Assembly: GCA_951813565.1 (NCBI GenBank)
Contig: OX638351.1
Coordinates: 4,128,001 to 4,192,000, forward strand
Reading direction: 5' to 3'
DNA from: an uncultured Poribacteria bacterium
GTDB lineage: Bacteria > Poribacteria > WGA-4E > WGA-3G
DNA length: 64,000 bases
Shown piece after piece: positions 15,101 to 47,200 of this stretch (position 1 is the stretch's first letter; each line of letters starts with the position of its first letter). The notes beneath the pieces were generated by a model. It was not told the DNA's origin. It did not search any database and saw nothing but the letters and a program-made list of their open reading frames with translations. The translations under genes were made by a program, and so were the position numbers.

Positions 15101-15292
15101 TACAGTCTATCTCATAAATTGTTAAATACGGTTCCTTACACAGGATCTACATTCATCGTAGGGGCGGGTCCCCGGTGAATGCCAAAAGGCATTCGGACCG
15201 TTGATTTGGTGCCCGCCCATTGTTTACACTTATGAGAGAGATGGCGAGGCACAGAGACCTCGCCCTACAAATGATTTATGAGATACGCTCTA
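15101..15292. mobile_element. MITE with TA-bounded imperfect TIRs carrying an inverted GTAG-REP pair
   Basis: TACAGTCTATCTCATAAAT...ATTTATGAGATACGCTCTA; near-identical copy at 49906-50484, same ends at 59097-59277. Confidence 0.75.
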
Positions 15293-28146: not shown

Positions 28147-28219
28147 ATAGTAGATTTTATACCATTTCCATGTGATTATATTGCATTGTGTCTTAGGTCA
28201 AGTTTCACTATGCCCTACC

Positions 28220-28467
28220 CATAGGTGTCAACTTAAGAAAAAAATGATGGATTTTCTCTTGTGGGAGGGAAACTTTGTCCGCCCGATTTTGTGAGACTCA
28301 AACTGTTAAATCCAAATCAACGATGAATGCGCCTATGGCATTCATCCAAATCAACGCAGCATGCGCGTCCGACATGCTGCCAAATCAACGCTGAATGCGC
28401 GTGTAGGCATTCAGCGGGGTTGAAAACCCCTCCCACAAGAAGGTGTATCCTTAAGTTTACACCTATG
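28220..28467. mobile_element. IS4/IS231-like MITE
   Basis: TIR CATAGGTGTCAACTTAAG...CTTAAGTTTACACCTATG; relatives at 34007-34242, 38495-38764, 43770-43951, 49986-50354, 50574-50921, 59522-59796. Confidence 0.75.
28313..28415 (+). repeat. Tandem array of three CAAATCAAC-hairpin units (34, 34, 35 bp)
   Basis: Constant CAAATCAACG followed by three different stem-loops. Confidence 0.9.
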
Positions 28468-28729
28468 GGTAGAGTGAAGCGAAACCCAATTCAACCGTCT
28501 TGACAGTCCTAAAGAGTTGGGTTTCACTTATTTTCAGAAATATAGACCTCAAATGGGTCAACAACCTCTCTTTAGGGTTTGTTTTTATTGTCCATTTCCG
28601 TTCTACTTCACCGAATGGCATAGGCGCATTCGGTGTTGATTCCCTACCGGATTTATCAAACTCACGTTACATTAACGACTTGTGCCAGTTAACATTTTGT
28701 TTTGTTGGTTTTCACATATATTTGCATTT

Positions 28730-28915
28730 GTGCTATAAACATATCGTCCCTACCAAATCAACGCCAAATGCGCCAAATCAACGGTCCGAATGCCTTTTGG
28801 CATTCCCCGTATGGCATTTGGCGGGACTAAAGAGTGCTCGTCCAATCATTTTCTATAAACATATCGTCCCTACCAAATCAACGCCAAATGCGCTTATGGC
28901 ATTTGTCGGACTGAA
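28730..28915. repeat. Two REP-like CTATAAACATATCGTCCCTAC-GGGACT units, each with AATCAAC-hairpin insertions
   Basis: Compare the uninterrupted CTATAAACATATCGTCTCTACGAGACT at ~59689-59715. Confidence 0.8.
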
Positions 28916-29055
28916 GAACATATAAATATATGATAATGACTTACAAACATTTTCTTTTGTGAAATAAAGTTCTACATATGGTTATTTAGCACAACTCGTT
29001 ACACTAACAAACAACTGAGTAAAGAAAAACCTTTAACTTTCATCTTAAATTCCTC

Positions 29056-29826
29056 CTAAGGGTTTAAGCCTAAAAATTCATACACATCAAATCCACTTGA
29101 GTCGTAATCAAGGATACGAATCCCTGGCGTTTTCTCTCCTGCTCGAATTTTTGCTTGGGCTTCTGAAGACAAGACATTAGAATCTCCAACAAAACTGACT
29201 ATTTTAGATGTTCCGTTAGCTGTTTTCGTCTCTTTGGTCCGAACATATACCGTATTCGGTGTAACGACATATATTTTCTGAGTATGACGATCTAAACTAA
29301 GTTTAACATCAGTTTGCCCTTGTTTCCATAATTTAATACGGACGCGATCAAGCAACTCCCTTGGCCGAAGGGTATCATGATGACCCTCTCGGTCAAGATC
29401 GAAAGTCCAAAACGGCCGATACGCATCAGGATAATCCGATGGAATTTGAGGATAGGCACCAAACCCATAGTCTGACTCACCATAGGAAGCAATTCGCCAA
29501 TCATTGGGATCTGCTGCAAGTTTTGCCACGTCCTCAATATGTTCTAAGGGTACACCTTTCTCAGAAGATTCAAGTGGTGTTTCGGAAGTTTCGTTTGCAG
29601 GATCCAGTGGTTTTTCCTCTGGGGTTTCTGTGTTCTCTGCAACGGTTTGTTCCGTTGGTGTTTTACCATCTTTACTGGACGCATCCTTACGAACCTGACT
29701 AAAGTCTGGTACATTATAGACTTTTTTCTCAGCGGTAGGAGGCTTAGGTTTCAAGAGAATAAACCCACCAACGCCAATAACAACAATAAGTACCAGCAGC
29801 CAATGCCAATTTTTGCGCCAATACAT
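29056..29826 (-). CDS. Membrane-anchored hypothetical protein, paralog of 37396-38226
   Basis: N-terminal TM; YGFGAYPQIPSDYP, ELLDRVRIKLW, FDVYEFLGL. Confidence 0.8.
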   Translation of the reverse strand: MYWRKNWHWLLVLIVVIGVGGFILLKPKPPTAEKKVYNVPDFSQVRKDASSKDGKTPTEQTVAENTETPEEKPLDPANETSETPLESSEKGVPLEHIEDVAKLAADPNDWRIASYGESDYGFGAYPQIPSDYPDAYRPFWTFDLDREGHHDTLRPRELLDRVRIKLWKQGQTDVKLSLDRHTQKIYVVTPNTVYVRTKETKTANGTSKIVSFVGDSNVLSSEAQAKIRAGEKTPGIRILDYDSSGFDVYEFLGLNP

Positions 29827-30065
29827 TGTTTCACCTCCCGTAGGTTGTGACTTCCTTGTCAGGGAAGTCAGTTGTAAATAAATAACGCACTACAACGTCA
29901 GTCGTTTAGGCACTTTGAATGTGAGTTAGCGTTCACTATCATGAGGTCTATTGACTTCACCGGTATGCTTACAGATAAAATATAGATTAAATAGCGAACA
30001 ATGTTAATTTTTTGCTAAAAATGCACAAAACATCAAGATATTTTACAATATCTGTCTATGATTGT

Positions 30066-30080
30066 ACACACACACACACA
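30066..30080. repeat. (AC)7-8 microsatellite in a divergent promoter region
   Basis: ACACACACACACACA. Confidence 0.8.
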
Positions 30081-30299
30081 ATTTTTGTCAACTGTTTTTT
30101 AATTATTGTAGAGATATTTAGTTTTTGCTCACTTTAGTGAGAAATTGTAACCGGGGATCGCTTTTAAGGTGAAGAAATCTTGAGCAGACAGTAAAACTAA
30201 CGGAGAATTGAACGGGTCTGACAAAAGGAGTTGACAAACATCTATATCTTTAGGTAGAATTACAATAATAAGTTAATACTTCTGCAAAAGGAGACAAAA

Positions 30300-30665
30300 A
30301 TGGCAGACGAAAATGGTAATAACGAACTTGCTGAAAATACAGATCATAACGCTTCAGGAAGCGGATTTATTGTAAACGTCAATCAGCTGCAATCCATGGA
30401 TATTCCGCTGCGATTTAACCGCGTCAAAACAGATAATGGTTGGATTATCAATGTGCAGGAAGCAGGAAGAGTAACAGTAAACTTTTTAACCAGTATGAGA
30501 AAATTGGAGACTGCATTGGTCGCGGGTGATAGCATTGAGCGGGATGGTGACGACCTTATAATCATGCGAAGCCAGCCAGCCGATGCATATCGCTCACAGC
30601 GAGGCACTTCCCCGTTAACGCTTAGTCGTGAGGAGTTGTTGTCAACTACCCCATCAGCGAAGTAA
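30300..30665 (+). CDS. Hypothetical protein
   Basis: AAGGAG RBS; TTGACA-18-TAGAAT at 30231-30260. Confidence 0.7.
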   Translation: MADENGNNELAENTDHNASGSGFIVNVNQLQSMDIPLRFNRVKTDNGWIINVQEAGRVTVNFLTSMRKLETALVAGDSIERDGDDLIIMRSQPADAYRSQRGTSPLTLSREELLSTTPSAK

Positions 30666-30888
30666 GACAGAATTCTAAATAGTGTAAATGGATTTAGTTA
30701 TATTTTAAGCGTAGATTTAGTAAAGCATATAATTACTTGCACACTTTCATAATAGCGCTCTGACCAGTAATGTTGACTGCACCTAATAACAACGGGTCGC
30801 GAGCTGGAGCTCGCTCCTACAGGAAGAGGTAGGGCGGATAAAGCACCTACTAACAGATGTCTACATAATTGTATATTTCACTATATTT

Positions 30889-31040
30889 ACGCAAGTTGCT
30901 ACTTACAAAATTTTGAACAAAAAGACGATGTTTTTCCTAAAAAACAAGGGTTTTTCGTTGATTCTGGATGTCTTTTGTTATAAATCGGGGTTAGAAACCC
31001 CTCCTACAAGAGAATTTACGAAATCGGTAGCAACTTGGGT
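30889..31040. mobile_element. IS982-family MITE (152 bp) with 7-bp TSD
   Basis: Ends ACGCAAGTTGCTAC/GTAGCAACTTGGGT match the IS982 TIRs at 60824/61749; TSD TATATTT. Confidence 0.85.
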
Positions 31041-31164
31041 TATATTTCAGAAAGATTTACTTAACCGAACTATTTTTATAAGCCATATTAATTTTCGTAT
31101 TAGGAGGTACCAGACCATTTTAGAACGTATCTACAGACTTATTTCAAGTTTAAAAGGTGGAACA

Positions 31165-31635
31165 ATGGTGCCGACAGCTGTAGTGCTGAGTCCCGATAGT
31201 TACGCGGAAGTTGTTGCTGAACTATTTGAAACATCCGAATCGGAAGGTGATGAAGCACAGGGACTTGAGCATCAACTGGGATTACCTCCTATTTCAGTTC
31301 GGTCAGATGATACGGATATTGTCGTTGTAAAGGAATTGGTGCCGAACCCGTGTCCAATTTGCCATCATCCGCTTAAGTTTCTCCGAGAATTGATTGAACG
31401 GTTTGAGAAGGAAGAAACCAATTTGATTAGGTGTCCGCTTGGACACCGCTATTCCGGGATGATGAAGGTTTACCATTTGAACATTTTTCAGCAATCGGAA
31501 AACTCCGAAACGGTGAAAAAAGTTACTGAATGCCCAGCATGTGGCGGTAAAAAAATCCAGTACTTAGGTCCAGCGGAGATGTTTTGTTTAGATTGTGACT
31601 GGGATAGTGGTATGGTTGCTCGGTATAAAATGTAG
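31165..31635 (+). CDS. Hypothetical protein with two zinc-ribbon-like motifs
   Basis: Likely start 31165 after AAGGTGG; CPIC...CPLGH and CPAC...CLDC. Confidence 0.7.
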   Translation: MVPTAVVLSPDSYAEVVAELFETSESEGDEAQGLEHQLGLPPISVRSDDTDIVVVKELVPNPCPICHHPLKFLRELIERFEKEETNLIRCPLGHRYSGMMKVYHLNIFQQSENSETVKKVTECPACGGKKIQYLGPAEMFCLDCDWDSGMVARYKM

Positions 31636-31675
31636 TATTTTCTGGATTTACGCAAATTTCGGCAGAATAGGTGTT

Positions 31676-31935
31676 TATAGTGAAATCCATAATTTTTTGG
31701 ACATTCTGTTCTTATGCAGATTCAAACATACCATAAATATCCGAGGCGACAAGTCATGGCGAATACCACACGCGTATTCGCCCAAGTGCGCTTGGCGTTG
31801 ATTTGGCAATGAATTGCGCTTGGTGAATGCGCCAAATCAACGGTCCGAATGCCTTTTGGCATTCCCCGTATGGCATTCACATTAAACGCCGCTAACCTTA
31901 AGAATAATGTAAAGGTATTTTTAGATTTTACTATA
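31676..31935. mobile_element. TA-bounded MITE (IS630/Tc1-like ends) with nested hairpin units
   Basis: TATAGTGAAATCCA...TAGATTTTACTATA; same ends at 38989-39102. Confidence 0.65.
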
Positions 31936-31987
31936 ATAGGATTTAAAGTTTCATAGCAAACAGTCAGGAAGAAAGTGCTGGAGTGTG

Positions 31988-32014
31988 TAAGCGCGTTTTA
32001 GGAAAACGCGCTTA
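31988..32014. terminator. Hairpin between convergent genes
   Basis: TAAGCGCGTTTT-agg-AAAACGCGCTTA then TTTT. Confidence 0.7.
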
Positions 32015-32083
32015 TTTTGCGTTCGTTGTTGAAAGCGTACGCCCGCAATAGATGTGTGAGATTCCGCTTTGATTTACCAAATA

Positions 32084-33718
32084 TTAGTACATGTGGTCGT
32101 CATGCGGGTCTGCAGCTTCAGAGAAGTCGGGTGGTTCTTCAATCTCCGTGATCAACGTCTCTGTAGTCAAGAGCAATCCGGCAATACTTGAAGCATTTTG
32201 TAGTGCCGACCTGACAACCTTTGTTGGGTCAATAACACCGTATTCAAACATATCACCGTATTCTTCAATAGCTGCATTGAACCCGTAGTTACCTTCACCG
32301 TCCTCAACCTTTGCGAGGACAACGGCACCTTCTAATCCAGCATTTTCCGCTATTGCACGGATAGGTGCGCGTAAAGCCGCTCGGACGATGTTAAGACCTG
32401 TATTTTGGTCGCCTTCAAGCTCAAGTGCTTCAATTGCTGAAATAACGCGCAAGAGTGAGGTTCCACCACCGGCGACAATACCTTCTTCAATAGCGGCACG
32501 AGTTGCAGAGAGCGCATCCTCACATCGTGCCTTTTTCTCTTTCATTTCTATTTCAGTCGCTGCACCGACGTTTACAACGGCGACCCCACCAGCCAGTTTT
32601 GCAAGCCGTTCCTCAAGTTTTTCACGGTCATATTCAGAGGTTGTGTCTTCAATCTGCATGCGTATTTGTTTTATTCTACCTTCAACACTTTCTTTTACAC
32701 CACTACCACCGACTATAGTCGTATTCTCTTTATCAATTGTAACGCGCCGAGCGGTACCCAACATGCCAACTACGATATTTTCTAAACGAATACCGGCATC
32801 TTCAGAGATTACCTGACCAGCTGTTAAGATAGCAATATCTTCAAGCATTTCCTTGCGTCTATCCCCGAATCCAGGTGCTTTTACAGCTGCTACTTGTAGG
32901 ATGCCTCGGAGTTTGTTTACCACTAAAGTAGATAACGCTTCCCCTTCTACATCCTCAGCAATAATTAACAGAGGGCGCCCGAGTTGCATTACCTTTTCCA
33001 TAATCGGGGCAATGTTTAATATTGAACTGATTTTATCGGTGTTAATGAGAATCAATGGGTTCTCAAAATCAACGACCTGTGCTTCCATGTCTGTAACAAA
33101 ATTAGGCGATAGGAATCCTCTGTCAAACTGCATTCCTTCAACAATGTCAACAGTGGTTTCAGAGGTTTTACCTTCCTCAATGGTGATGGCACCATCATTT
33201 CCAACTTTCTCTATTGCGTCTGCGATAAGAGTGCCGATATTGCTGTCATTGGCGGGATCGTTGGCTGCAATTGATGCTACCTGCACAATTTCGTCATGTG
33301 TGTTTACTTCGCGGCTTTGGACAACAATTGCATTGACAGCAGCATCTACAGCTTTGTCGATACCAATTTTTAACTGCATTGGGTCAGCCCCAGCAGTAAC
33401 GTTTTTAAGACCTTCGTGAAGGATTTCTTGTCCTAATAGCGTAGCAGTAGTTGTTCCGTCCCCCGCAACATCGTTTGTTTTGGTAGCAATAGATTCAAGT
33501 AATTGGGCGCCCATATTTTCATAAGGGTCTTCAAGTTCAATTTCTTTAGCGACGGTGACGCCATCGCATGTTATCAGCGGCGCACCGAAAGATTTTTGGA
33601 TAACTACATTACGTCCACGTGGACCGAGAGTAACTTTTACCGCGTTAGCGAGTGTATCCGCGCCGCGTTTGAGCGCTACCCTCGCGTTCTCTTCGAAGAT
33701 TAATTGCTTTGCTGGCAT
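32084..33718 (-). CDS. groEL: Chaperonin GroEL
   Basis: [37 protein letters not shown]; start MPAKQL at 33718 after GAGGAGG. Confidence 0.98.
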
Positions 33719-33776
33719 TAAATTCCTCCTCAAGTGATTTTAAAATAGTTTGTATGATGTTTTATTGATATATTTA

Positions 33777-33805
33777 ATTATAACATGCACAATGTCCAAA
33801 GTCAA
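33777..33805 (-). promoter_or_regulatory. sigma70 promoter of groEL
   Basis: Minus strand TTGACT-17-TATAAT. Confidence 0.8.
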
Positions 33806-33822
33806 CTTTTTGACATTTCATA

Positions 33823-34359
33823 GGGTGTGTGAAGTTTTTGTATAAATCCGCACAACTCCTATTGTAGGGGCGGGTCTCCGGGGAATGCCAAAAGGCATTC
33901 GGACCCGGTGAATGACTAAATGTCGTTCATACCGTTGATTTCTTGATTTAGTGCCCGCCCGTTGGATGGCACGTCCTGTGCAGTGGCGGGGCACAGAGAC
34001 CCCGCCCATAGGCGTCAATTTAAACACACAATTACCAGATTGCCTCTTGTGGGAGGGCTTTATAAGCCCGATTTATATGTATTTATCGGGGTTGAAAACC
34101 CGCCAAATGCCAAAAAGCGCATTTGGCGTTGATTTGGCAGCATGCCAAACGCGCATGCTGCGTTGATTTGGCAGCATGCCAAACGCGCATGCTGCGTTGA
34201 TTCACTCCCACAAGAGGGTATATCCTTAAATTGACGGCTATGGGGCACCAAATCAACGGTATGAATGCCTTTTGGCATTCCCCGGGACCCCGCCCTAAAG
34301 TGGAAAACGCCGCGTAATCATTGTAAATTGAACCTATGTAACCAAATATTTACACACCC
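33823..34359. mobile_element. Composite MITE with IS256-like ends, copy 1
   Basis: GGGTGTGTGAA...TTTACACACCC; 9-bp TSD CATTTCATA/CATTCCATA; contains REPs, an IS231-like MITE and hairpin units. Confidence 0.8.
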
Positions 34360-34488
34360 CATTCCATAATAAAACTTAAGAATCTAAAATAGGTGTTTTC
34401 TGTAGGTGTGGTTTAGAAGTTACTTTAAGCAACAAAATGTATTTTCACACCTACAGATATGATTAGTGAACTTAAGAATTGAAACTTA

Positions 34489-35217
34489 TTAATATCCAAA
34501 CGAATGCTTCAGGTTTCCCCATGTAAGCGTCATTTTTTGAACAGGGTGTACATCAAGTGATCCTTCACCCAATGAAATTGCAGTAATAATAGGTACCGCT
34601 CCCGTTTCCAAAGAGATTGCATCAATTGAAACAATCTCTGTATTCGGATGCGGATTTTCCCATTTCGTGGTAATCAATCCAGCTTTGTTGCAAGCCGGTT
34701 TTTCGTTTGCTGTCCAGCCCCATACAGAATTTTTATCAGCGAAATTTTTCTCTATATGGCACCAATCATGGGAATTATGACCTGTAATCATCTCAAGAGT
34801 TTCCTGTATTCCACCTTGATAATTCATGACAAATTTGTAACTTGGTCCGCCACCATGTGACCAACCTGTTGCATGGAAAAAATAGATGGATTTTGCGACA
34901 CCTTCCACAGCAATATCATTAACAGCCTTGGGCCACCTCTGCGCGTTAGTCCCAAAGAGAACGATGCCGCCATCGAAAATCTGGAATTTCACTTTTTTGT
35001 CGGGGCCCTCAAACTCTGCAATTTCACCTATCGGTAGGAGAGAATAGGTATTATCTCCTGCATTAAGTGTCCACCATTGATGTCCCACCAGTTTAGTGTT
35101 TGAGTAGGGTTCAAGGTCAATAGGCACAAATTCTTGTAATGCAAGTGTTTGTCCAGCACAAAAAAACGTAACCGCACAAAGCACTGCGATTATTAGAAAC
35201 AACTTAGCCAACTTCAT
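34489..35217 (-). CDS. Secreted beta-sandwich-like protein with C-terminal 'VxPxxKxxxTWGxLK' motif
   Basis: Signal peptide; IYFFHATGW, WENPHP; ends DVHPVQKMTLTWGNLK. Confidence 0.8.
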   Translation of the reverse strand: MKLAKLFLIIAVLCAVTFFCAGQTLALQEFVPIDLEPYSNTKLVGHQWWTLNAGDNTYSLLPIGEIAEFEGPDKKVKFQIFDGGIVLFGTNAQRWPKAVNDIAVEGVAKSIYFFHATGWSHGGGPSYKFVMNYQGGIQETLEMITGHNSHDWCHIEKNFADKNSVWGWTANEKPACNKAGLITTKWENPHPNTEIVSIDAISLETGAVPIITAISLGEGSLDVHPVQKMTLTWGNLKHSFGY

Positions 35218-35350
35218 AACGAATTCCTCCAGTATTTTGTTTTTTATTGCAGTATAGTCAATATTACAAATAGTGTCAACAATCTAATAAGGTTGCTTTT
35301 TTTATTTTAATATGGGAAAATGATAGTTAATAATTTCTTAGGGGGAAACC

Positions 35351-35857
35351 ATGAATTCAAATAATTTTCGCTTAGCATTATCAAAATCTAAAGATATTAC
35401 ACTAAATTTTTTTGGTCGCGTTTTATCAAGCACACGTGTTGAACCAATTCGTGATGAAGAAGGTGCTAAAGGTGTTAAGGCATGTTGGGTAGGGGAACAA
35501 GGTGGAAGCAGTATTGCAGTGGATACTGGTGAATGGAACGCTAATGTTACAATGGAAGCAGACGAACCACCTACTGTAGAATATGTTCAATACGGGGACA
35601 CGCGCAGTGTTACAATCAAAAATATCAATAATATATCTTGTTCTGTAGACCGTGAGACATTAGACCAGTTTGCAACACCGAGAGGCGCGGCGATTGCAGT
35701 TTGCGCTGGAGCTGCCGCTGGATTAGTTGGTTGGTTTGTCGTTTCTGTGATGCGTGCTCTTGCAGTGCCCAATAGAGAGGAGGATGCCCCTTCAATAGCT
35801 GCTGTATCTTCTGAGGAAGTCGAGACCGAACAAGAAAATCCATCCATAGAAGAATGA
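35351..35857 (+). CDS. Hypothetical protein with C-terminal TM helix
   Basis: AGGGGG RBS; overlaps the next gene by ATGA. Confidence 0.7.
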   Translation: MNSNNFRLALSKSKDITLNFFGRVLSSTRVEPIRDEEGAKGVKACWVGEQGGSSIAVDTGEWNANVTMEADEPPTVEYVQYGDTRSVTIKNINNISCSVDRETLDQFATPRGAAIAVCAGAAAGLVGWFVVSVMRALAVPNREEDAPSIAAVSSEEVETEQENPSIEE

Positions 35858-37047
35858 AAATCGTATCGGTAGATCCTTTCTATTTGCGGATGCCAGAGCT
35901 CACCGATGCAGCGGATGGAACACAGGATACGCTTTTAGTACGTGTTCGCACAGATGCAGGATTTGAAGGGTGGGGAGAATGTGATGCTTCACCTTTGGTC
36001 AGCATTGCTGTTTATTGCTGTCCGATGTCGCACGGCAATATTATTAATATCCGCACTTCGCTAATTGGTGAAACGCTTGATAGTCCAGACGATGTGCTTC
36101 GCTTGAGTGAAAAGGTGCTGCGGAACGGCTTGGACATTCAGCAGATACAGCATGCTTATAGCGGAGCAGAGATAGCGTTGTGGGATATTATCGGAAAGAA
36201 GTTTGAAAAACCCGTTTACCATTTTCTCGCTGAAATCTCTGGAACATCTGACATAGCACATCCGAAACTGCCGTATGCGTCTGTTCTTTTTGGTGATACA
36301 CCTGAAGATACCTATCAAATCGCAGTGGGATTGCGCGAACAAGGGTATCGTGCTGCGAAGTTCGGTTGGGGACCGATGGGAAAATTCGGTCAGGAAAATG
36401 ACATTGCACTTGTACGTGCGGCGCGCGAGGGTATGGGTGTTGACGCACAAATTATGATTGATGCGGGTGTTGTTTGGGGAACAGATTACGAAACCGCTTA
36501 TCAGCGTGCTGAAGCGTTTGCCGAATTTTCTCCCACGTGGTTGGAAGAACCGCTTACCCCCGATGCGATTGATGCTTATAGTTCGTTAACCCAAAAGAAT
36601 CCGCGTGTTCCCATCGCAGCAGGCGAAGGTTCAAATACCTATCGCATGGCAGAAGACTTGATCATTCATGGCGGTGTCCAGTTTGTTCAGATTGACACAG
36701 GACGCATTGGCGGCATTATGCCCTCTTTTCAGGTACGTCAACTTGCTGAGCAGCGCGGTGTTCAATATGTCAATCACACCTTTAAAAGCCATCTCAGTCT
36801 TGCCGCTGCACTTCACGTTTTTGCCACTAACCCAGATTTCAATTTATTAGAATATCCGGCTGCAGGTTCAAAACTATCGCAGCAAATTGTAAAAATTCCC
36901 TATCAAGTTGATCAAGATGGTATGGTTCGCGTTAATGATTTACCTGGACTTGGTGTACAAGTGAATACGGATGCAATTTGTCCATATTTAGTCTCAGTAA
37001 ATATCCACGTTGGTACTGAAAAGGTTTTCCAAGATGCATTTCTTTAG
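35854..37047 (+). CDS. Mandelate racemase/muconate lactonizing enzyme family (enolase superfamily)
   Basis: GWGE, EIALWDI.GK, IMIDAG, WLEEP, IAAGE. Confidence 0.92.
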   Translation: MKIVSVDPFYLRMPELTDAADGTQDTLLVRVRTDAGFEGWGECDASPLVSIAVYCCPMSHGNIINIRTSLIGETLDSPDDVLRLSEKVLRNGLDIQQIQHAYSGAEIALWDIIGKKFEKPVYHFLAEISGTSDIAHPKLPYASVLFGDTPEDTYQIAVGLREQGYRAAKFGWGPMGKFGQENDIALVRAAREGMGVDAQIMIDAGVVWGTDYETAYQRAEAFAEFSPTWLEEPLTPDAIDAYSSLTQKNPRVPIAAGEGSNTYRMAEDLIIHGGVQFVQIDTGRIGGIMPSFQVRQLAEQRGVQYVNHTFKSHLSLAAALHVFATNPDFNLLEYPAAGSKLSQQIVKIPYQVDQDGMVRVNDLPGLGVQVNTDAICPYLVSVNIHVGTEKVFQDAFL

Positions 37048-37077
37048 TCAGTACCCTTACTTATTCCGACCCATTCA

Positions 37078-37395
37078 CTATATCTCTAACCAGTATTTAT
37101 ACGATATTATCTTACCATCTTTGTTAATTAACCACTTAGATGGCATACCACTAACACGGCACAGTTTTTTTTTAGAGGACCTTCTTTTCCATCAAAAATC
37201 TGCCGCCAAGGTAAGCTGCACACATTTAGGTATTCGGACATATCTGATTCTTCCGTATCTCGGTTAATACCGATAACATCAAAACCGAAATCTCTATTAG
37301 CATCATATACCTTTTTCACGATTGGCATATTACCAATACAAGGTCCGCACAAAGTTGCCCAAAAATAGAGTAACACAACTTTTCCTCTATAGTCT
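37078..37395 (-). pseudogene. TlpA/peroxiredoxin-like thioredoxin fragment, frameshifted
   Basis: DYRGKVVLLYFWATLCGPC; frameshift in an A9 run (37165-37173), then SGMPSKWLINKDGKII; no N-terminus. Confidence 0.85.
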
Positions 37396-38226
37396 TTAAC
37401 GGTTAAGCCCCAGAAACTCATAGGGATCAATACCATCTTCATAAGATCTTATCTCAATCCAATCAGGAATCGGTTCGTATCCCATTCGTTGCTCTATAGA
37501 TAACAATCCGACTGCTCCGGTCGCACTTGATATATAACGCCTTACTTGACCATTTGCATCTGTCGTCTCGTCCCACTCTACATAGATAACATTGGGCACA
37601 GTGGGGTAAAACAGACCGTTCCCATCGAGATTTGTTATTCCAGAAACATCAACACCTTCGTTAAAAAGCTTGATTCCGACACGCCCCAACAGCTCACTTA
37701 TTCTCAGATGATCATTAAAAGTGATACCTCTTAATTTAAGACCATCACTCATAACATCTTCCAGTTTCGCAATGAATTCTTCGGTCCAGAGCCATGAGGG
37801 TGTCATAGGATAACCCTCTGGCACTTCGGGATACGGTCCGAAGCCAAAAGGCGAGACAGGCACATCTTCTGCCGGTGCATCTTCAGGTAAAGACGCATCC
37901 GCAGTGTCAAGCATTTCGGAGGCATTATCTACCGGTGACACAACCGTGTCGTCAGGCATTTGTGTGTCCCCGGTTTCAAGTAACTTTTTAGCCTGTTCAG
38001 AATCCACCAGGATTGTATCAACGGTGTCCTGGGCATCGCGTGTTTCATCATCATTCTTCCATGAATGCAGCATCGCATCGGTTTTTGCCAACTCCGCATC
38101 AATAGTGCGTTGAACATGCCAACTATAGAACCAGCAAGCACCCGCAACCACAAATAAGATAACAAGCCCAGCAAGAATTAATCTACTGGAAAGTAATGCA
38201 CGTAACATACTATTTACCTCCTTCAT
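37396..38226 (-). CDS. Membrane-anchored hypothetical protein, paralog of 29056-29826
   Basis: N-terminal TM; SPFGFGPYPEVPEGYP, ELLGRVGIKLF, GIDPYEFLGL. Confidence 0.8.
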   Translation of the reverse strand: MKEVNSMLRALLSSRLILAGLVILFVVAGACWFYSWHVQRTIDAELAKTDAMLHSWKNDDETRDAQDTVDTILVDSEQAKKLLETGDTQMPDDTVVSPVDNASEMLDTADASLPEDAPAEDVPVSPFGFGPYPEVPEGYPMTPSWLWTEEFIAKLEDVMSDGLKLRGITFNDHLRISELLGRVGIKLFNEGVDVSGITNLDGNGLFYPTVPNVIYVEWDETTDANGQVRRYISSATGAVGLLSIEQRMGYEPIPDWIEIRSYEDGIDPYEFLGLNR

Positions 38227-38313
38227 TCTGAAATAACGATCCCATGGAGAAAATCATTAATACGATATAATTATACAAAAAAAACACTTTTTGTCAAGAA
38301 TTTGTCAAGAAAA

Positions 38314-38917
38314 GGGTGTGTAAAGTTTTTGTAGAAATCCGCACAACTCCTATTGTAGGGGCGGGTCTCCGGGGAATGCCAAAAGGCATTCGGACCGTTG
38401 ATTTGGTGCCTGCCCGTTGCATGGCACGTCCTGCGCAGTGGCGGGGCACCAAATCAACGGTATGAATGCCTTTTGGCATTCCCCGGGACCCCGCCCATAG
38501 GCATCAATTTAAGCACACAATTACCAGATTGCCTCTTGTGGGAGGGCTTTATAAGCCCGATTTATATGTATTTATCGGGGTTGAAAACCCGCAGCATGCC
38601 ACACGCGCATGCTGCGTTGATTTGGACAAATGCCAAAAGCAGAATCAACGCCGAGCGCGCGTATGGCACTCGTCGCATTTGGCGTTGATTTGGCAGCATG
38701 CCATACGCGCATGCTGCGTTGATTCGCTCCCACAAGAGGGTATATCCTTAAATTGACGGCTATGGAGCACCAAATCAAGAAATCAACGGTATGAATAACA
38801 TTTAGTTATTCACCGGGTATGAATGCCTTATGGCATTCCCCGGGACCCCGCTCTACAGTGGAAAACGCCGCGTAATCATTGCAAATTGAACCTATGTAAC
38901 CAAATATTTACACACCC
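38314..38917. mobile_element. Composite MITE with IS256-like ends, copy 2
   Basis: Collinear with 33823-34359 but with different hairpin-unit content. Confidence 0.8.
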
Positions 38918-39123
38918 AATTGAAAAGAATCCGCATGATGTTCAAGCAAAAGTATCTGAACACCTATAATCGGGCAATTCGCGTAATTTATAGTAAAATT
39001 CACAATTACCTTTACATTGGCGAGGTTAGGAAACCTCGCCAGCGCATGCGTGTGGGAATTGCTGTTCATTGAAATGTGAACATATTATTGGATTTTACTA
39101 TAATATGGAGACCTGATCGCAGG

Positions 39124-40179
39124 TTAAAATTGACCAGAAACAGAAATACGTTGCGAGCCGCCGAGTGTATGTGTGTTGAAAGCGTAATCAACAAAAAAGG
39201 TCATGGTGCTGACTCGCAATTGGAGTCCGGTGCCAGCAGAAAATCCATGCCCATTCCAGCCACAACGTAAGGCAAGCGTGTTAAAGAGCCAGTATTCCGC
39301 GCCTGTGCGAAAGAGAAGTCCGCCGGAGTCTGTGCCTTCTTCTAAATCCGCTTGATCGGTTTCAAAGTCAGCACCGATGCTACCTTTGCCGAAGCTTGGA
39401 AAGGTGAATTGGTAAGCACCCCCAAATCGTAGTCGCCGCCCGCGAGTGAAAACGGGTTTATCCGCTGTGTCCCACCGAATTTGCGTGCCAGTGGCATCAA
39501 GTAACATAGTGCCGAACCGTAAACCTTTGTAAGGAGCGAGAATAAGACCGATGTCAATGCCGAAACCTCTTCCACTATTTTCAAAAATAGATTGACTCAG
39601 GAGTTTGAGGTTACCACCGACAGCCGCGATCGAATGGATTTGACGCGCATAAGAGATGAGCAAAGCGTTGTCGGTATTGCTAAAATATTCCGCAACTGTG
39701 GGGCGGTCGATATAGGGTTCACCTTCATCTTTAGTGCCGTTCCCGTTTATGTCCTGAAAATCGCCGAGGAAACCGTTATTATCAACATCAATGAAGGTAG
39801 TGCGTGGTATGTCGTCAATTCCGAGACGAATCCAACTCAAACCGAGGCTACCAATATCCTCAATTTGATGGACATAGTTGACAAAATTGTAATTTACCAA
39901 ACCTTTACTAAAAAAACTGCCATCGCCAGTACTGAATGTATCTGAATACATTGCTGAAAAACTATGTTTTTTGACATTCGTCAGACCGGCAGGATTCCAA
40001 TAAGTTGCGGTAGCATCGTCAGCGATTGCAACGAATGCACTTCCCATTCCGAGTGCGCGTGCCCCGACGCCATGGCTAAGAAACTCTGCCGCGTGTGATC
40101 CTTCATCAGCAGCAAAAGCGGTTAAAGGTAAGATGAAACCTATTGCGAGTACAAAGAGAGAGATTTTTGTTGTATTCAT
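39124..40179 (-). CDS. PorV/PorQ-like outer-membrane beta-barrel
   Basis: FL..GVGARALGMGSAFVAIADDATATYWNPAGL; GAEYW..LALR; terminal Phe; likely start 40179. Confidence 0.82.
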   Translation of the reverse strand: MNTTKISLFVLAIGFILPLTAFAADEGSHAAEFLSHGVGARALGMGSAFVAIADDATATYWNPAGLTNVKKHSFSAMYSDTFSTGDGSFFSKGLVNYNFVNYVHQIEDIGSLGLSWIRLGIDDIPRTTFIDVDNNGFLGDFQDINGNGTKDEGEPYIDRPTVAEYFSNTDNALLISYARQIHSIAAVGGNLKLLSQSIFENSGRGFGIDIGLILAPYKGLRFGTMLLDATGTQIRWDTADKPVFTRGRRLRFGGAYQFTFPSFGKGSIGADFETDQADLEEGTDSGGLLFRTGAEYWLFNTLALRCGWNGHGFSAGTGLQLRVSTMTFFVDYAFNTHTLGGSQRISVSGQF

Positions 40180-40186
40180 GATGTTT

Positions 40187-42160
40187 TTAGCCTGGTGCGA
40201 AGTCGTAGATCGGTTCACGGATAATGACGCTTAAAACGCTCCAGAACGCACCTACGCAGTATTCACCGAGGATAACTCCAAAGAAGAAGAAAATCATTTT
40301 TTGATATGTGCTGGGACCCCCAAATCGGAGTGCCATCCACTTAAGAAATGTACTAATAACGAGACAACTCCAAAAATAACCAACACCGAACGTCATGGAG
40401 ATGGGATAGCCTGCAGGATGGAGCGGCCACCAAATAAACCGCATCCGCATAAACATCAGTAAGAAAGTGAAGCCCATGCCACCTGCCATAAAACTCATGG
40501 CGGGGACGTTCGGATCGCGCGGGAAAGCAAAAAGACCAGCAAGCCATCCGAATTGGCCGATATGTCCAACTGACGGACCAATTCCGCCACCTGCGCCTGT
40601 GATTGCTCCACCGAGGCGATAGAGTTCACTCAGCGTTGCCCAGAATGCTGAGAGTGAGCCAAGCACAACAGCAATAATCATTGCCAACACCAATTTTTTC
40701 GTGTTCATGTTGGCGCGTTCAGCCATCTTGAAGGATTCAAGTTGATGTGGCATGATGTGTTCACGATAGCCGCGCCCACTAAAAAACCAAAAATACGGAA
40801 ACACTGTTAGGTTGTTAGGTCCGATGCGTCGCGTGCCCAAAATATTCACTAAAAATTGCTGCGCGTTGCACATCCCTGCCATCTCATGTGCGGGAGGACC
40901 CAATTCAGCACGAACACGTGTGATAGCGATTGAGATTGCGTAGAAAAATCCGAAGAAGGGAAGAATAATTGGGAGTGTCATCCCTGCCTTTAGACAGAAC
41001 CAGATAATATAGAGACTGGCGAGGATTATCAAGAAAAATGCTGTTCGATATCGTATCGGTTCCTGTGCATCGTCAATACCTCCTTGCATACCTAAGATCG
41101 TTCGGGCAACCTTTGCAATATGTCTACGCGTTACCAGCAGCGCGATGATGAAAATTGCCATCCATCCTCCTATGGACTGCTCACTACCATACGGAAAAGG
41201 TGCAGGAATTCCGACAGCACTCCCGAAAACACGTTGTATTTTCTCGAAAAGATAGAAGAACCATAGGGAAAAAGATAGGTCAAGTGGTAAAAGAAAGCCT
41301 AAACCGATTACAAATGGATATAGCGGAACAGGGATATTCCCAACAGCGTTCCACGGTTTTTCAGTGAAAAATGTCCCCCAATTACGCGCGTTATGTCGCA
41401 CACTGAAATCTGGAAGTATTGGGAAAAAATGAGCCAATCCGTGCCAAACATTCAGTATAGCTGCAGCAATAAAACCGTACCACAATAGTCGATTTCGGAA
41501 AAGTTGTGCTCTGCCACCGCCTTCTGTGATTGCCATCGGCAGTTGAATGATGGGATATGCCAGTTTCTCGTGTTCTGTCCACTGTTTACGAATAAGCACA
41601 TTTAGACAGATCATGATGGCACCGAGTGCAAGGATAAAAGATGTCCACCACAAGGTCGGCATAACCCATGCCCCACCTATCTGTGCGTTGTAGAACGGGG
41701 TATCGCCTTCGTAGAATCCACGAATAATTTCTTTATCGGCAACTACGAGGTGTTGTGGTATATAACTGTGGAATGTGCCAGCCCAATCATTTTCTATGGT
41801 AGCGAACCAAAAGGCATGTGGTAGTGCGGGGATAGTTAAAGCCAACATATCGTGTCCTGCCAAACCAGATGCAATAGAAAGCATAGCGTAGATGGTAATC
41901 ATCTCGCCTTGTGTCAATGCTGATTTTGGTGCTACGCGTTTGAGGAAAAGGTTTATTAGGATTAAGAAAAAGATGTTGAGAACGACATTCCAAAACAGAG
42001 AGATTGTTGTAGGATGTCCAGAGTGCCATACACACTCAACTTCAATGATCCAAAATACATTGGGTGGGATTAGGAAAATCGCAATGAGTATCGCACGCCA
42101 TGTGACACCGGACTCACGATTTTTGTTCAGTTCGCTGAGGTTTTGTACTGATGATTCCAT
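40187..42160 (-). CDS. Large multi-pass membrane protein, putative transporter (DUF6785-like)
   Basis: Many TM helices; TWRAILI, RKQW..EKL.YPI..LP, WWPLHP.GY. Confidence 0.65.
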   Translation of the reverse strand: MESSVQNLSELNKNRESGVTWRAILIAIFLIPPNVFWIIEVECVWHSGHPTTISLFWNVVLNIFFLILINLFLKRVAPKSALTQGEMITIYAMLSIASGLAGHDMLALTIPALPHAFWFATIENDWAGTFHSYIPQHLVVADKEIIRGFYEGDTPFYNAQIGGAWVMPTLWWTSFILALGAIMICLNVLIRKQWTEHEKLAYPIIQLPMAITEGGGRAQLFRNRLLWYGFIAAAILNVWHGLAHFFPILPDFSVRHNARNWGTFFTEKPWNAVGNIPVPLYPFVIGLGFLLPLDLSFSLWFFYLFEKIQRVFGSAVGIPAPFPYGSEQSIGGWMAIFIIALLVTRRHIAKVARTILGMQGGIDDAQEPIRYRTAFFLIILASLYIIWFCLKAGMTLPIILPFFGFFYAISIAITRVRAELGPPAHEMAGMCNAQQFLVNILGTRRIGPNNLTVFPYFWFFSGRGYREHIMPHQLESFKMAERANMNTKKLVLAMIIAVVLGSLSAFWATLSELYRLGGAITGAGGGIGPSVGHIGQFGWLAGLFAFPRDPNVPAMSFMAGGMGFTFLLMFMRMRFIWWPLHPAGYPISMTFGVGYFWSCLVISTFLKWMALRFGGPSTYQKMIFFFFGVILGEYCVGAFWSVLSVIIREPIYDFAPG

Positions 42161-42190
42161 ATTTTTAGATATGACAATAGTTTCTTCAAG

Positions 42191-43657
42191 TTAAAAGTGT
42201 GTTAGCGGTTCGTTCTCTTTTAATTCCCATAGAATATGTCCGAATTCACAAGCACCGGGTGTGGAACCGCTGAAGATTTCTGTTTGGATACCCCAAGCTA
42301 ATTTATAGGCGGAGATAATTTGTGTCAACGAAGTGGAGACATCACCATAGCAGAGAATAGCCGCGGTCCCGCCGCCACCACCGCCAGTAATTTTAGCACC
42401 GTAGATCCCGCCCTGCTCACCAATTTTTTGTGCGATGTTGACAATTCCATCAATTTCGGGAGAACCGAGTCCGGCTAAATCACGATAGCTTGCATTTGAT
42501 TCGTACATGAGGCTCCCCGCTATTTTGAGAAAATCACGTGCGCGGTCCGGAAATTCATGAACATTTTTGAGGGCATTTATAAATTGTTTAACCCGTTCGT
42601 TTTCATAAATCGGATGTTTCACACAATTTCTAACCATGTATACTTTATGAGGGTCTACCTGTGTAACGGAATCAACGGTCTCACCGTATTTATTGAGAAA
42701 ATCGCTGCCTTGCATCTGTTCGGGTAAAAGCGTTTCACAATGCTCACGAAATTCTTGAACAGATAAATTACAGAGATAGTTATCTTTTAACTTTTCCCAT
42801 CCGAGTTCCTTTTTTAAGATTGATAACCCCATAAATGCTGCGGTACGTGTGTTGATGTACGCGTCACTTTTTGTGCTTCGCGGTGCTTTGGTGTGGATAC
42901 CAATAAAACTCACTTCTGACGGACATTCAACGAATTCAAGGATTTTATCCGGTTGGCAGAGGATAGAAAGTATTTTATTCCTCGCGCCAGCTGCGGAAGT
43001 CACTTGGTCCATGATCCCGCATGGCGCCCCAACGATTCGGTTTTCAACAATTTGTGCAATCCTCGCGATTTCCATCGCGTCCAAATTCAAATCGTAGAAT
43101 TGATTGAGTGCAGTTAACGTTGCGACTTCGATCGCGGCAGAGGAAGCGATACCTGCTCCCATCGGAATATCGCTTTTGAGAACAATCACTACACCGTGCG
43201 GAAACTTTTCAATTTTTTCTTCCTTTAACAGTGTAAACAAACAGCCGAGTATATATCCTGTCCACGTTGTTCGCGTATCCTTGTTAAAAAGATTTTTGAC
43301 CTGTGTGTACGATTTAAGAGCGCCATCAGCATAGAGATCATCAAGCGATATCTGAAAACTCGGTTTTAGTCGAGTATCGGTTTGAAGTGTCAGGACACAG
43401 AGATTTCTGTCTTCCCTTGCCTGGCACGCTACGACAGCAGCACGGTTTAGCGTCATTTCAAAGACGTTTGATCCACAATAATCTGCGATGCCACCCATTA
43501 TGTCAAGCCTTGCGGGGGCACGTGCAACTGTTATCCGCCCTTCATTCCGTAAACCGTGCGGACACAAAATATCTGGCGAATCACATTGTAAAAGATATTC
43601 AAGTTCAACAACCTGAAGCGTTTTTTCTTTGGGACCGTGAATCTGCTCAACTTTCAT
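42191..43657 (-). CDS. GHMP sugar kinase (galactokinase/L-arabinokinase-like)
   Basis: APARLDIMGGIADY, PMGAGIASSAA, GAPCGIMDQ, GAKITGGGGGG. Confidence 0.9.
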   Translation of the reverse strand: MKVEQIHGPKEKTLQVVELEYLLQCDSPDILCPHGLRNEGRITVARAPARLDIMGGIADYCGSNVFEMTLNRAAVVACQAREDRNLCVLTLQTDTRLKPSFQISLDDLYADGALKSYTQVKNLFNKDTRTTWTGYILGCLFTLLKEEKIEKFPHGVVIVLKSDIPMGAGIASSAAIEVATLTALNQFYDLNLDAMEIARIAQIVENRIVGAPCGIMDQVTSAAGARNKILSILCQPDKILEFVECPSEVSFIGIHTKAPRSTKSDAYINTRTAAFMGLSILKKELGWEKLKDNYLCNLSVQEFREHCETLLPEQMQGSDFLNKYGETVDSVTQVDPHKVYMVRNCVKHPIYENERVKQFINALKNVHEFPDRARDFLKIAGSLMYESNASYRDLAGLGSPEIDGIVNIAQKIGEQGGIYGAKITGGGGGGTAAILCYGDVSTSLTQIISAYKLAWGIQTEIFSGSTPGACEFGHILWELKENEPLTHF

Positions 43658-43769
43658 TTTGTATCTTTGGTCGCACGGTTTCCGGTGTGAATGTCCTTTT
43701 TAAAGTTTGCTACTATAACGTGAGTTTGGCATAAGCAATTTTGAGAATAGGAGCGGTTAGAAACCGCTC

Positions 43770-43951
43770 CATAACTGTCAATTTAAGGGTTTATTTCAGG
43801 TATCACACATTTTAACCCAAACAACACCGTAACCCGATTGTAGGGGTGGGTCTCTGTGCCCACCCGTTGTTTGAATACATCAGCAATGGCGGGCACAGAG
43901 ACCCCACCCTACAAGGTTTGAAGGGATTTATCCCCTAAATTGACGTCTATG
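43770..43951. mobile_element. IS231-like MITE carrying an inverted GTAG-REP pair
   Basis: CATAACTGTCAATTTAAGG...CCTAAATTGACGTCTATG; flanked by a degenerate 19-bp duplicated REP hairpin. Confidence 0.7.
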
Positions 43952-44056
43952 GTGCGGTTAGAAACCACACCTACCGCGTCTATGAGAGTAGAATTCAAAG
44001 CATTAAGAACTGCATATTTCTTACACCGAACTCAGGTTCTTATAACTAACAAGGCA

Positions 44057-45664: not shown

Positions 45665-45742
45665 TTGTGTAATTCTCCTTCCAATGGCAGATAAAATATC
45701 CGCCTTTATATTCCGATCAATATATTTTGGGGTAAAAGTTTT

Positions 45743-47131
45743 CTATTGTATTTTTTGTCCTATTGCTTTTTCCAGTCGTGCTAAACCCACAACATAGTCA
45801 TATTGAGCTTGCAGACGATTGACTTTTGCCTGCATCAATGCAAGTTGCGTGTCAGTAAGTCCGACAGTGGTAATAATGCCATTCTCGAATTGGATAGTTG
45901 CAATTCGAACACTTTCTTCTGCCTGTGCAATGGTTTCGCGCTGAACGTCAATGAGAGTTTTTGCTTCAAGTAGGGCAAGATAGGCATTACGCACCTCAAA
46001 CTCAACAGTTGACATAACTTGTTTTGTACCCAATTGGAGCTGCTTCAGAACCGATTCGCTCTGTTCTACCCCCGCACGAGAAGCAAACCCATCGAAAATG
46101 GGGATATTGATTTGCAATCCAAGGCTCCAGATTCGGTTCATTTCAGTGAGTCTTTCGTTATGAGAAATTTGGTAATTGGAGAAAAAAGCAAGGTCAGGGA
46201 GGTTCCGAGTCTTCGCGACACTCAGTTGTTTTTGCCCTGCTTGTTCGTTGAGTTGAGATCGACTAATTTCTGGACGTGTCTCAAGAGCCAATTTAATTAA
46301 TTCGTCCAGTTGAACTTCGATTTTAGGTATTTCAAAAGAACCCTCAACTGAAACCTCCTCAGAAAACGGAAGATTAAGTAAGGTTTTGTAGGCGTTTTGT
46401 GCTGTTTTGACTCCGTTTTTGGCACGAATTAATTGTGATTCTGCATTTGCAAGTTGCACGTTCGCACGAAGCACATCGAAATTAGTGGTTGCTCCTGCAT
46501 CAAAGGATGTTTGTGCGATACCGAGTTGTTTTTTTACTAACGCAACACTTTGTTCTGCAACTACCACGAATTCTTGTGCTATTAACACACGATAAAATGC
46601 CTCAATAACATCTAAACGGAGTTTTTCATAAGCAGCGTTTAACTCTTTTTTCGCTGCTTCGTATTGAATTTTCGCTGCTTGATAACCGTAGTAGTAACGT
46701 CCCCAAGCAAAGACAGGTTGTGTCAAATTGACTGCGCCTTGGACATTATGATGTGCCCCAAACTCCAACTCAATTAGATCAACCTCATTATCTACACTTG
46801 GTGTTGACATTTCATTCATATCTTCCCCAGGTATAGGGAATCCGAAACCACCTTCCGCCTGAATTACTGATTTTTGTACATCTTTAAAATAGGTATAGTT
46901 TCCATTTGCTGCGAGTCTTGGTAGCATTGTAGCGCGAGCAGTACTAATTTGTGCTTCAGCAGATTTTAGATTTTGTTCAGCAGTCTGAATAACAAGATTG
47001 TTCTGTTTAGCAACTTGTAAACTATCTTCAAGGTTAAAAACTTTAGCTTCTTCAGCGGATGCTGACAAAGTTAGCAATAGTAGTAAAATGGTTCCAACCC
47101 AACTTGGGTAATGGAACCGTAATGTATTCAT
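45743..47131 (-). CDS. TolC-family outer-membrane efflux protein
   Basis: Likely start 47131; two OEP repeats, LTQPVF, IPIFDG. Confidence 0.9.
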   Translation of the reverse strand: MNTLRFHYPSWVGTILLLLLTLSASAEEAKVFNLEDSLQVAKQNNLVIQTAEQNLKSAEAQISTARATMLPRLAANGNYTYFKDVQKSVIQAEGGFGFPIPGEDMNEMSTPSVDNEVDLIELEFGAHHNVQGAVNLTQPVFAWGRYYYGYQAAKIQYEAAKKELNAAYEKLRLDVIEAFYRVLIAQEFVVVAEQSVALVKKQLGIAQTSFDAGATTNFDVLRANVQLANAESQLIRAKNGVKTAQNAYKTLLNLPFSEEVSVEGSFEIPKIEVQLDELIKLALETRPEISRSQLNEQAGQKQLSVAKTRNLPDLAFFSNYQISHNERLTEMNRIWSLGLQINIPIFDGFASRAGVEQSESVLKQLQLGTKQVMSTVEFEVRNAYLALLEAKTLIDVQRETIAQAEESVRIATIQFENGIITTVGLTDTQLALMQAKVNRLQAQYDYVVGLARLEKAIGQKIQ

Positions 47132-47200
47132 GTATAATGTTTCCTCCAAATGAGGTAGTACCAAATTCATTTGATTCATTGTCTTCACATGCCGCGCCGC

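Follow-up and report, generated by a model that had tools for sequence, protein, structure and literature searches.

Tagged hairpin units of 34-36 nt occupy C|G steps in other hairpin repeats, and in one another, in a Poribacteria genome

HUH Y1 transposases cut and rejoin the single-stranded hairpin DNA of IS200/IS605 ends and of repetitive extragenic palindromes (REPs). IS200/IS605 elements, for example IS608 and ISDra2, move by single-strand "peel and paste," possess two subterminal hairpins, and insert after a short, fixed target of 4-5 nt. In the attC sites of integrons, paired inverse core and core sites (RYYYAAC ... GTTRRRY) lie at the base of a hairpin. Very small dispersed repeats of 21-27 nt, SDR1-8, were reportedly described by Elhai and colleagues in 2008 in Nostoc punctiforme and its relatives. 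REPs are extragenic imperfect palindromes of 20-40 nt that carry a conserved tag at the hairpin foot, cluster, and are lineage-specific (PMC3116915, PMC3733652), and some REP families occur inside other palindromes (PMC3733652). Here, we analyze a family of hairpin units in a 64,000-nt stretch of DNA (the window) from an uncultured Poribacteria bacterium (GenBank assembly GCA_951813565.1). The genome surveyed is one contig, OX638351.1 (5.43 Mb, 43% G+C), and the window is its positions 4128001-4192000. Whole units are joined into C|G steps, the bar marking the point of insertion, without target duplication. The sites lie mostly within or beside other hairpin repeats, specifically, GTAG-type REPs, miniature inverted-repeat transposable elements (MITEs), and the units themselves, and they are nearly always non-coding.

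In each unit, a hairpin body of 25-27 nt comes after a 9-nt tag, (C, rarely T/A/G)AAATCAAC, for a total of 34-36 nt. The first base of the body is G, the last is C, and the stem comprises 7-9 bp. The tag consensus NAAATCAAC (reverse complement GTTGATTTN) is present in all parsed units, a constancy that the search itself imposes. CAAATCAACG occurs 550 times in the genome, with C preceding it in 519 cases. In the window, CAAATCAACG with at most one mismatch is found 30 times versus 7.8 ± 2.6 times (maximum 16) in 100 shuffles. Likewise, NAAATCAAC occurs 1253 times genome-wide versus 175-404 times for four scrambled motifs, and pairing the tag with hairpins from a genome-derived library reveals 454 uninterrupted units versus 0, 0, and 0 with three scrambled tags. 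Units were peeled in three rounds (453 + 41 + 8), giving 502 parsed units, with ends set by the restoration test described below together with the library-based parse; energy-based end calling was replaced, having ended one subtype (GG, below) 1 nt too early and run one unit on into flanking sequence. Among 90 distinct 25-nt bodies, two to three Watson-Crick pair types occur at each of stem positions 3, 4, 5, and 8. The hairpin is kept by compensatory change, its stems varying by subtype yet staying paired. Only 8 of the 502 units lie under long open reading frames (ORFs), which make up 78% of the genome. Rfam has no match anywhere in the window, and Pfam assigns no family at cut-off to five adjoining ORFs.

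The units resemble REPs in the size and shape of an extragenic imperfect palindrome. They differ in that the tag is CAAATCAAC rather than GTAG or CGTC, arrays are direct tandems, units nest in their own loops, and no REP-associated tyrosine transposase (RAYT) gene is flanked by them. In this genome, GTAG REPs are targets, not units. With IS200/IS605 elements, the units share the lack of target duplication and of terminal inverted repeats and the need for a hairpin, and in both cases insertion directly follows a short, fixed sequence. Unlike those elements, they possess one hairpin and have only one fixed base on each side of the cut, and no replication-strand bias was seen under two uncertain origin/terminus guesses; the ends of the IS605-type copies in this genome are unrelated to the units. 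DDE-type MITEs differ from the units as well, since the units carry a tag at one end only and have neither terminal inverted repeats nor target-site duplications. Regarding attC, AATCAAC matches RYYYAAC at six of seven positions, yet single units contain no complementary copy. The Nostocaceae SDRs are likewise reported to be much smaller than MITEs and to occur scattered, in tandem, and inside one another; they code for nothing, no enzyme is known to move them, and they too reportedly exist as filled and empty versions of otherwise identical copies. Compared with the SDRs as reported, the units are longer (34-36 versus 21-27 nt), possess a 9-nt tag, a covarying hairpin, and a C|G target, and belong to another phylum. 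By tag and RAYT linkage, the unit family is not REP, and by end structure, it is not IS200/IS605. Its behavior matches that of the SDRs, as reported, and its shape matches that of REPs. A literature search found no description of such repeats in Poribacteria.

The site at 28754-28822 illustrates the arrangement. It lies in a MITE-like, non-coding, dispersed repeat of ~330 nt (28668-29001, plus strand) that is present in more than 10 copies by self-BLAST and that possesses two GTAG-type hairpin sites, GTCCC TAC|GGGAC. The initial annotation proposed that one unit had inserted cleanly at C|G here and had received another in its loop, again at C|G, and the coordinates proved exact for both. The outer unit, of the GCCAAATGC subtype (28754-28822, plus strand; 34 nt of its own, 28754-28773 and 28809-28822), sits at GTCCCTAC|GGGAC. 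The inner unit, of the GG subtype (GGTCCGAATGCC..CCCC; 28774-28808, plus strand), sits in the outer loop at GC|GTATG, and removing its 35 nt restores the exact host. The whole, 34 + 35 nt between its flanks, reads GTCCCTAC / CAAATCAAC GCCAAATGC GC / CAAATCAAC GGTCCGAATGCC TTTT GGCATTCCCC / GTATG GCATTTGGC / GGGACT. Genome-wide, the target GTCCCTACGGGAC is empty 21 times and filled 33 times. A further unit (28874-28907, plus strand) occupies the second GTCCCTAC site of the repeat, with right flank GGACT, one G short. Among the nine copies of the ~330-nt repeat with both anchors, this second site is empty in two and filled in seven; the copies at genome positions 2404282 and 2818465 have it empty. 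In the same nine copies, the loop of the site-1 unit is intact in two, holds a GG-subtype unit in three, and holds a deeper composite in four. At the inner site, some paralogous copies carry a GGTAT variant. The predicted fold of the nested stack is a single coaxial hairpin from which the tags bulge out on the 5' side (-19.6 kcal/mol, z = -4.2).

Filled and empty sites can be compared throughout the genome. In the restoration test, every cut at an offset of 16-24 and a length of 30-40 nt was made, and the remainder was compared with the 32-mers of uninterrupted units. The set comprised 32 cases in which a second tag lies 20 nt after the first and the inner unit is simple. Twenty-three of the 32 revert to an exact 32-mer, only at offset 19 or 20, and only when 35 nt (22 cases) or 36 nt (one case) are removed. 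Offsets 19 and 20 represent one event, since C is the last base of the left flank as well as of the unit. Beyond nested units, an exact 22-mer empty twin exists for 155 of 382 occupied top-level sites, with an equal count at -1 owing to the built-in ambiguity. Shifting both ends by +1 or +2 leaves 3 or 4 empty twins, respectively, shifting the right end alone by +1 leaves 7, and shifting the right end alone by -2, -1, or +2 leaves none. The sites with empty twins span 36 flank families, including GTAG-type REP hairpins, the MITE sites CAATTCATTGC|GCCTC.. and AAATC|GGGGTTGAAAACCCC, and the ends of other units. No target duplication occurs, and the single shared C (1 nt) is the sole ambiguity. 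Fifty nested units were parsed, all co-oriented with their hosts; 39 lie at offset 20/21 and the other 11 at offset 8. They represent 38 distinct events in 27 host-flank pairs.

That insertion is often at C|G, as initially suggested for a handful of sites, also emerges from genome-wide tabulation. Specifically, the rebuilt junction is C|G for 359 of the 428 units without a tag behind them and, after flank de-duplication, for 168 of 229. The CG dinucleotide background is 4.8% genome-wide and 4.1% outside long ORFs. The next commonest de-duplicated junction is A|G (n = 29), mostly at units whose tag starts with T or G. Two natural controls indicate that CG itself is needed. Of 168 unit loops starting with GCG, 38 hold another unit; of 138 starting with GCT or GCC, none does (p = 2e-11). 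In one GTAG-REP family, 31 of 31 filled loop matches read CAC|GG and 127 of 133 empty matches have no CG there, the totals of 31 and 133 being inflated by overlapping regex matches; the six remaining empty matches do have CG. Filled REP loops read CAC|GGAGA or CAC|GGGA, and empty ones are mostly CACAGAGA or CACAGGGA. The simplest reading is that rare CG variants alone were hit and later spread with the MITE; alternatively, insertion changes the next base. The filled CAC|GGGA loop is one base shorter than its empty counterpart (compare 34249-34283, 38371-38405, and 38450-38484). Two CG steps are available in TGC|GC|GTATG, and co-oriented units use the second only: tag-to-tag offsets are 20 (33 cases), 21 (1), and 28 (56), never 18. 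No tagged unit sits at the CG between tag and body (CAAATCAACCAAATCAAC, n = 0 genome-wide). C|G is a real requirement, though CG alone is insufficient. At 198 de-duplicated solo sites, -1 is the one conserved position of the left flank (C, 78%), with -2 merely C-poor. GG-subtype sites in other species behave similarly. Of 84 usable matches, 17 were set aside for a 3' arm that was non-canonical by regex and 8 for duplicate flanks; in the 59 distinct sites that remain, the preceding base is C in 47 and the following base is G in 55.

Subtypes differ in where they sit, and the earlier proposal of subtype-specific targeting holds up in the full set. Of the 144 parsed units of the GG..GAATGCC..CCCC (GG) subtype, 35 lie in unit loops and 37 in REP loops, others come after a partial tag, and none stands in tandem behind another unit. 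GC subtypes (GCAGCATGC, GCCAAATGC, GCTGAATGC, and others) occupy tandem arrays and MITE and REP-edge sites, and almost never loops. With flanks de-duplicated, 13 of 69 GG-subtype units versus 4 of 203 others lie in unit loops (Fisher p = 7e-6), and 0 of 69 versus 33 of 203 lie in tandem behind another unit (p = 6e-5); all p-values given here overstate independence because the copies are related. The GG subtype is never a host at offset 20 because its own loop lacks a CG. The companion proposal, that targeting is guided by structure, is plausible only: 19 of 48 de-duplicated GG-subtype non-unit sites lie inside a predicted hairpin loop, whereas at 70 of 162 sites of other subtypes no hairpin of -3 kcal/mol or better is predicted, the remainder lying in stems, beside hairpins, or in loops. 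Tandem arrays are direct repeats, not inverted doublets, and one holds five identical units. Units stack at least three deep through clean junctions. Further inserts lie within these stacks.

A distinct subtype, G, had been placed inside the leader of other units at 33905-33941, 38779-38815, and 50087-50123. Its positions are as described; the clean insertion is not, since excision does not restore a canonical tag. Specifically, GAAATCAACG follows CAAATCAA in 125 of 148 genome copies, and excising the G subtype leaves CAAATCAA-GGTATG or CAAATCAAG-GGTATG, not the canonical CAAATCAAC-GGTATG, the C being lost or replaced by G. Double tags (n = 120) precede an intact GGTATGAAYRAC hairpin in 20 cases, its interrupted version in 68, and a GCTACAAAT hairpin in 18; among the rest, 7 sit directly on an ordinary GG body, 6 are other variants, and 1 is triple. 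The 8-nt tag duplication thus also occurs by itself, in the seven double tags on ordinary GG bodies and in the triple tag. Equally good is a reading in which such a duplication came first and a 28-nt tagless hairpin then went into the C|G between tag and body. At several loci, tagless GG hairpins (GGGTATGAATGCC....GGCATTCCCC) occur two to three times in direct tandem behind the G-subtype hairpin. CATGG.. inserts (levels 4-5) also exist inside the G-subtype hairpin; by eye, these did not separate into clean junctions.

The remaining units of the window display the same contexts. GG-subtype units lie in REP loops at 15174-15208 (minus strand; 3' end CACC, CAC|GGGGACCCG), at 34249-34283 (plus strand; GGGGCAC|GGGACCCC, with paralogous MITE copies empty and their loop CACAGGGA), at 38371-38405 (minus strand; ..GGCAC|GGAGACCC on that strand), at 38450-38484 (plus strand), and at 50411-50445 (plus strand). 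Another GG-subtype unit (31833-31867, plus strand; host region 31823-31880) sits at GC|GTATG in the loop of the tagless hairpin GGTGAATGC..GCATTCAC. Because GGTGAATGC GCGTATG GCATTCAC is a host without a CAAATCAAC tag, a host needs the loop sequence, not the tag. Direct tandems include three units of 34, 34, and 35 nt at 28313-28415 (plus strand; stems GATGAATGC, GCAGCATGC, and GCTGAATGC, flanks ..TTAAATC and GGGGTTGAAAACCCC), three minus-strand units at 34102-34204, the last with a degenerate tag, three units at 50164-50267 (plus strand), and a pair at 50851-50919 (minus strand), in which the tag of the first unit is TAAATCAAC. Composites of 71 nt fill REP loops at 33880-33950 (minus strand; GGGCGGGCAC|..|GGAGACCCGCCCC, with a double tag, a GGTATGAACGAC hairpin of the G subtype at ~33905-33941, and a GG-subtype body) and at 38771-38841 (plus strand; CAAATCAAG + AAATCAAC + GGTATGAATAAC hairpin at 38779-38815 + GG body). 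A composite of the latter kind at 50079-50149 (plus strand) is followed by an orphan 3' half of a GCAGCATGC unit (50150-50163). Finally, in an array of three minus-strand units (38591-38726), the middle unit (38625-38692) is split by a 34-nt plus-strand unit with tag AGAATCAAC (38641-38674) at ..AAAAGC|GCATTTGG. The opposite orientation, noted initially, is real, and this unit sits at the other CG of the host loop. It exists in 12 identical copies genome-wide, at least 11 in the same composite context, and thus probably reflects one event copied with the host MITE.

Units are not confined to this genome. The tag motif CCAAATCAACG occurs 519 times here and 13-297 times in 18 other genomes of the genus. 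Outside the genus, in 12 genomes from three other families of the order, it occurs 4-12 times, with 0-8 for a reversed control. Judged by such counts, the unit family is genus-specific, with a copy-number range of ~40-fold and its maximum in this genome. The offset-20 architecture exists in 17 of 40 genomes of the genus, and a reversed control pattern in none. In 12 of 12 nested examples from other genomes of the genus (11 loci), the inner unit is of the GG subtype, on several kinds of host stem. Among public genome records, the exact GG-subtype 21-mer belongs to Candidatus Poribacteria bacterium in 79 of the 80 loci listed. Multiplication of host MITEs together with their cargo accounts for much of this abundance. 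In one intergenic region inspected in eight relatives, the REP-type host exists without units in four (L021, L022, L023, and L029), at a site that is not strictly equivalent. Public sequencing runs containing the stretch number eight, from four studies, and the four examined all yielded short-read contigs; because such contigs stop at unit clusters, alleles cannot be shown. In the part of the window at 28200-48199, each unit or MITE cluster coincides with contig breaks in the four sponge runs (for example 31813/31875, 33870/34332, and 38339/39078), where summed read depth is 20-100x that of unique DNA. A contig joint that skips exactly 38371-38405 in two runs was set aside as evidence: it has 26 nt on one side and 90% likeness, and it is perhaps a paralogue. 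Elsewhere, near genome position 1285263, a pentanucleotide microsatellite (tatta/tattg, >60 nt) adjoins a copy of the TTTACACACCC-ended MITE.

What might mobilize the units? None of the 10 PF01797 matches in this genome is flanked by units or unit pairs; these matches are IS605-type copies or RAYT-like genes, and the three RAYT-like genes are each flanked by GTAG REPs of other sequence. A query with the RAYT family found nothing in 15 of 40 genomes of the genus at E <= 1e-10. Y1 genes were rejected as mobilizers, as their flanks have no unit pairs and the AAAATCAAC matches near three of them lie inside a TnpB gene. Thus, the Y1/RAYT genes of this genome are poor candidates. To look for an autonomous parent, tag plus arm was sought together with a complementary arm 120-6000 nt further downstream. 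Nearly all of the 38 matches involve inverted downstream units, the nine intervals inspected hold ordinary genes, such as a GroEL-like ORF, and no parent was found. As separate observations, each of the three RAYT-like genes has its own REP type, as in typical REP-RAYT pairs, and ~60-nt tandem repeats at genome positions 242500-242900, downstream of a RAYT-like gene, each contain a GTAG-type REP (GTCGCGAGCTGGAG..CTCCTAC). IS605-type elements in which a Y1 TnpA overlaps or abuts a TnpB-like ORF reside at genome positions 228440, 2158799, 3745735, 4320373, and 2036476. Recurrent "tag" matches of the form AAAATCAACTGTATAGATAC derive from ~17 TnpB copies.

Our favored reading, to which we assign a probability of roughly 0.68, is that the units are non-autonomous mini insertion elements joined into C|G and moved, as single strands and in trans, by an HUH-style enzyme. 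Joining of whole units into C|G is shown by the junctions above; the further inference is that the unit moves as single-stranded hairpin DNA, and that a nicking-joining enzyme acting in trans would read tag and hairpin, cut, and rejoin. The absence of target duplication, the maintained hairpin, and the fixed 5'-foot tag fit enzymes that cut and rejoin single-stranded hairpin DNA. Moreover, 35 nt cannot form a double-stranded circle or hold two transposase-binding ends; an element this short leaves no room for coding or for double-strand synapsis, so the mover would have to read tag and hairpin on single-stranded or extruded DNA. Insertion regenerates a C|G at the right end of the unit, and the GC-subtype loop offers another; these steps explain the direct tandem arrays and the coaxially foldable hairpin-in-hairpin stacks. 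The GG subtype goes to loops and the GC subtypes to ends and flanks, and host MITEs then multiply together with their cargo. A bolder version, which we hold only tentatively and with the odds against it, is that the units form a minimal class of mobile DNA in which tag and hairpin are the sole cis needs, an enzyme other than Y1/RAYT acts on the CpG of extruded hairpins, and foot and loop encode site choice. If true, this would constitute a new transposition system with built-in, sequence-coded target choice.

Several observations weigh against the favored reading. Many copies are not independent, and the filled REP loops may derive from few events. Comparison was between species, whose closest representatives are ~85% identical in genes. 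The 762 tag matches outside the 502-unit parse are a mixture of chance matches and unparsed composites. No enzyme was linked to the units. PF01797 matches number zero in two genomes of the genus that hold 102 and 62 tag motifs (97% and 94% complete), a genome of the genus with 21 PF01797 matches has only 13 tag motifs, and Y1 genes are present with units absent in 9 of 12 out-of-genus relatives. Finally, no replication-strand bias of the units was seen (205 versus 177, or 186 versus 196, under two origin/terminus guesses that are both uncertain). The cumulative GC skew of this contig stays open by +7700, with its minimum at 0.50 Mb and its maximum at 5.06 Mb, and the gene-strand curve has its turning points at 1.29 and 4.47 Mb; these curves do not cleanly define an origin and a terminus.

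A rival idea is that the pattern is a fossil, in which few old insertions were followed by composite-MITE amplification, gene conversion between paralogous repeats, and array slippage, and units have stopped moving or moved seldom at any time. The opposite-orientation composite in 12 identical copies, recurrent composites with 33 and 30 identical 44-mers, the array of five identical units, and the CG loop variant that filled REP loops share and empty ones lack are all in line with it. We nonetheless consider it rather unlikely. The exact empty twins span 36 flank families, the nested units include 27 distinct host-flank pairs, load differs stepwise among the nine copies of a single MITE family, 16 other genomes follow the same rule with host stems that differ, and slippage between 1-nt repeats cannot remove a tag plus a hairpin.

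Less probable still is that the units are ordinary REPs (with their bacterial interspersed mosaic element, BIME, and REP doublet, REPIN, arrangements) moved by a RAYT-like Y1 transposase of the genome. The units are like REPs in size, hairpin shape, location outside genes, and clustering, two of the three RAYT-like genes have units nearby, and RAYTs are reported, in work by Ton-Hoang and by Messing in 2012, to cut and rejoin REP single strands in vitro. Yet the tag is CAAATCAAC, with no GTAG or CGTC, the RAYT-like genes keep other GTAG REPs at their flanks, the RAYT family goes undetected in the 15 genomes noted above, two unit-bearing genomes possess no PF01797 match at all, and arrays are direct tandems, not inverted doublets. 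Units could also be selected functional modules, such as terminators, RNA stabilizers, or protein-binding sites, that spread through their function. Their intergenic location and stable predicted hairpins (z = -4.2, -4.8) suit such roles, which have been proposed for REPs (Di Nocera 2013, PMC3733652). A 40-fold variation in copy number within one genus, residence in other selfish repeats and in each other at least three deep, the lack of an Rfam match in the window, and exact C|G junctions that function leaves unexplained make this explanation very improbable, with the proviso that function and mobility are not mutually exclusive.

To the earlier description, the present analysis adds the genome-wide tabulation, the C|G requirement with its controls, the subtype-by-context rule, and the negative result for Y1 genes. 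The units are among the smallest mobile DNAs seen. Given hundreds of filled and empty pairs, a one-step C|G target, and two natural controls, the enzyme question is testable with oligonucleotides. For the sponge symbionts that carry them, the units explain intergenic breaks in short-read assemblies, and they illustrate how long intergenic coaxial hairpins are built from repeats. The subtype rule, if real, would hint at a compact, sequence-coded aiming of DNA insertions.

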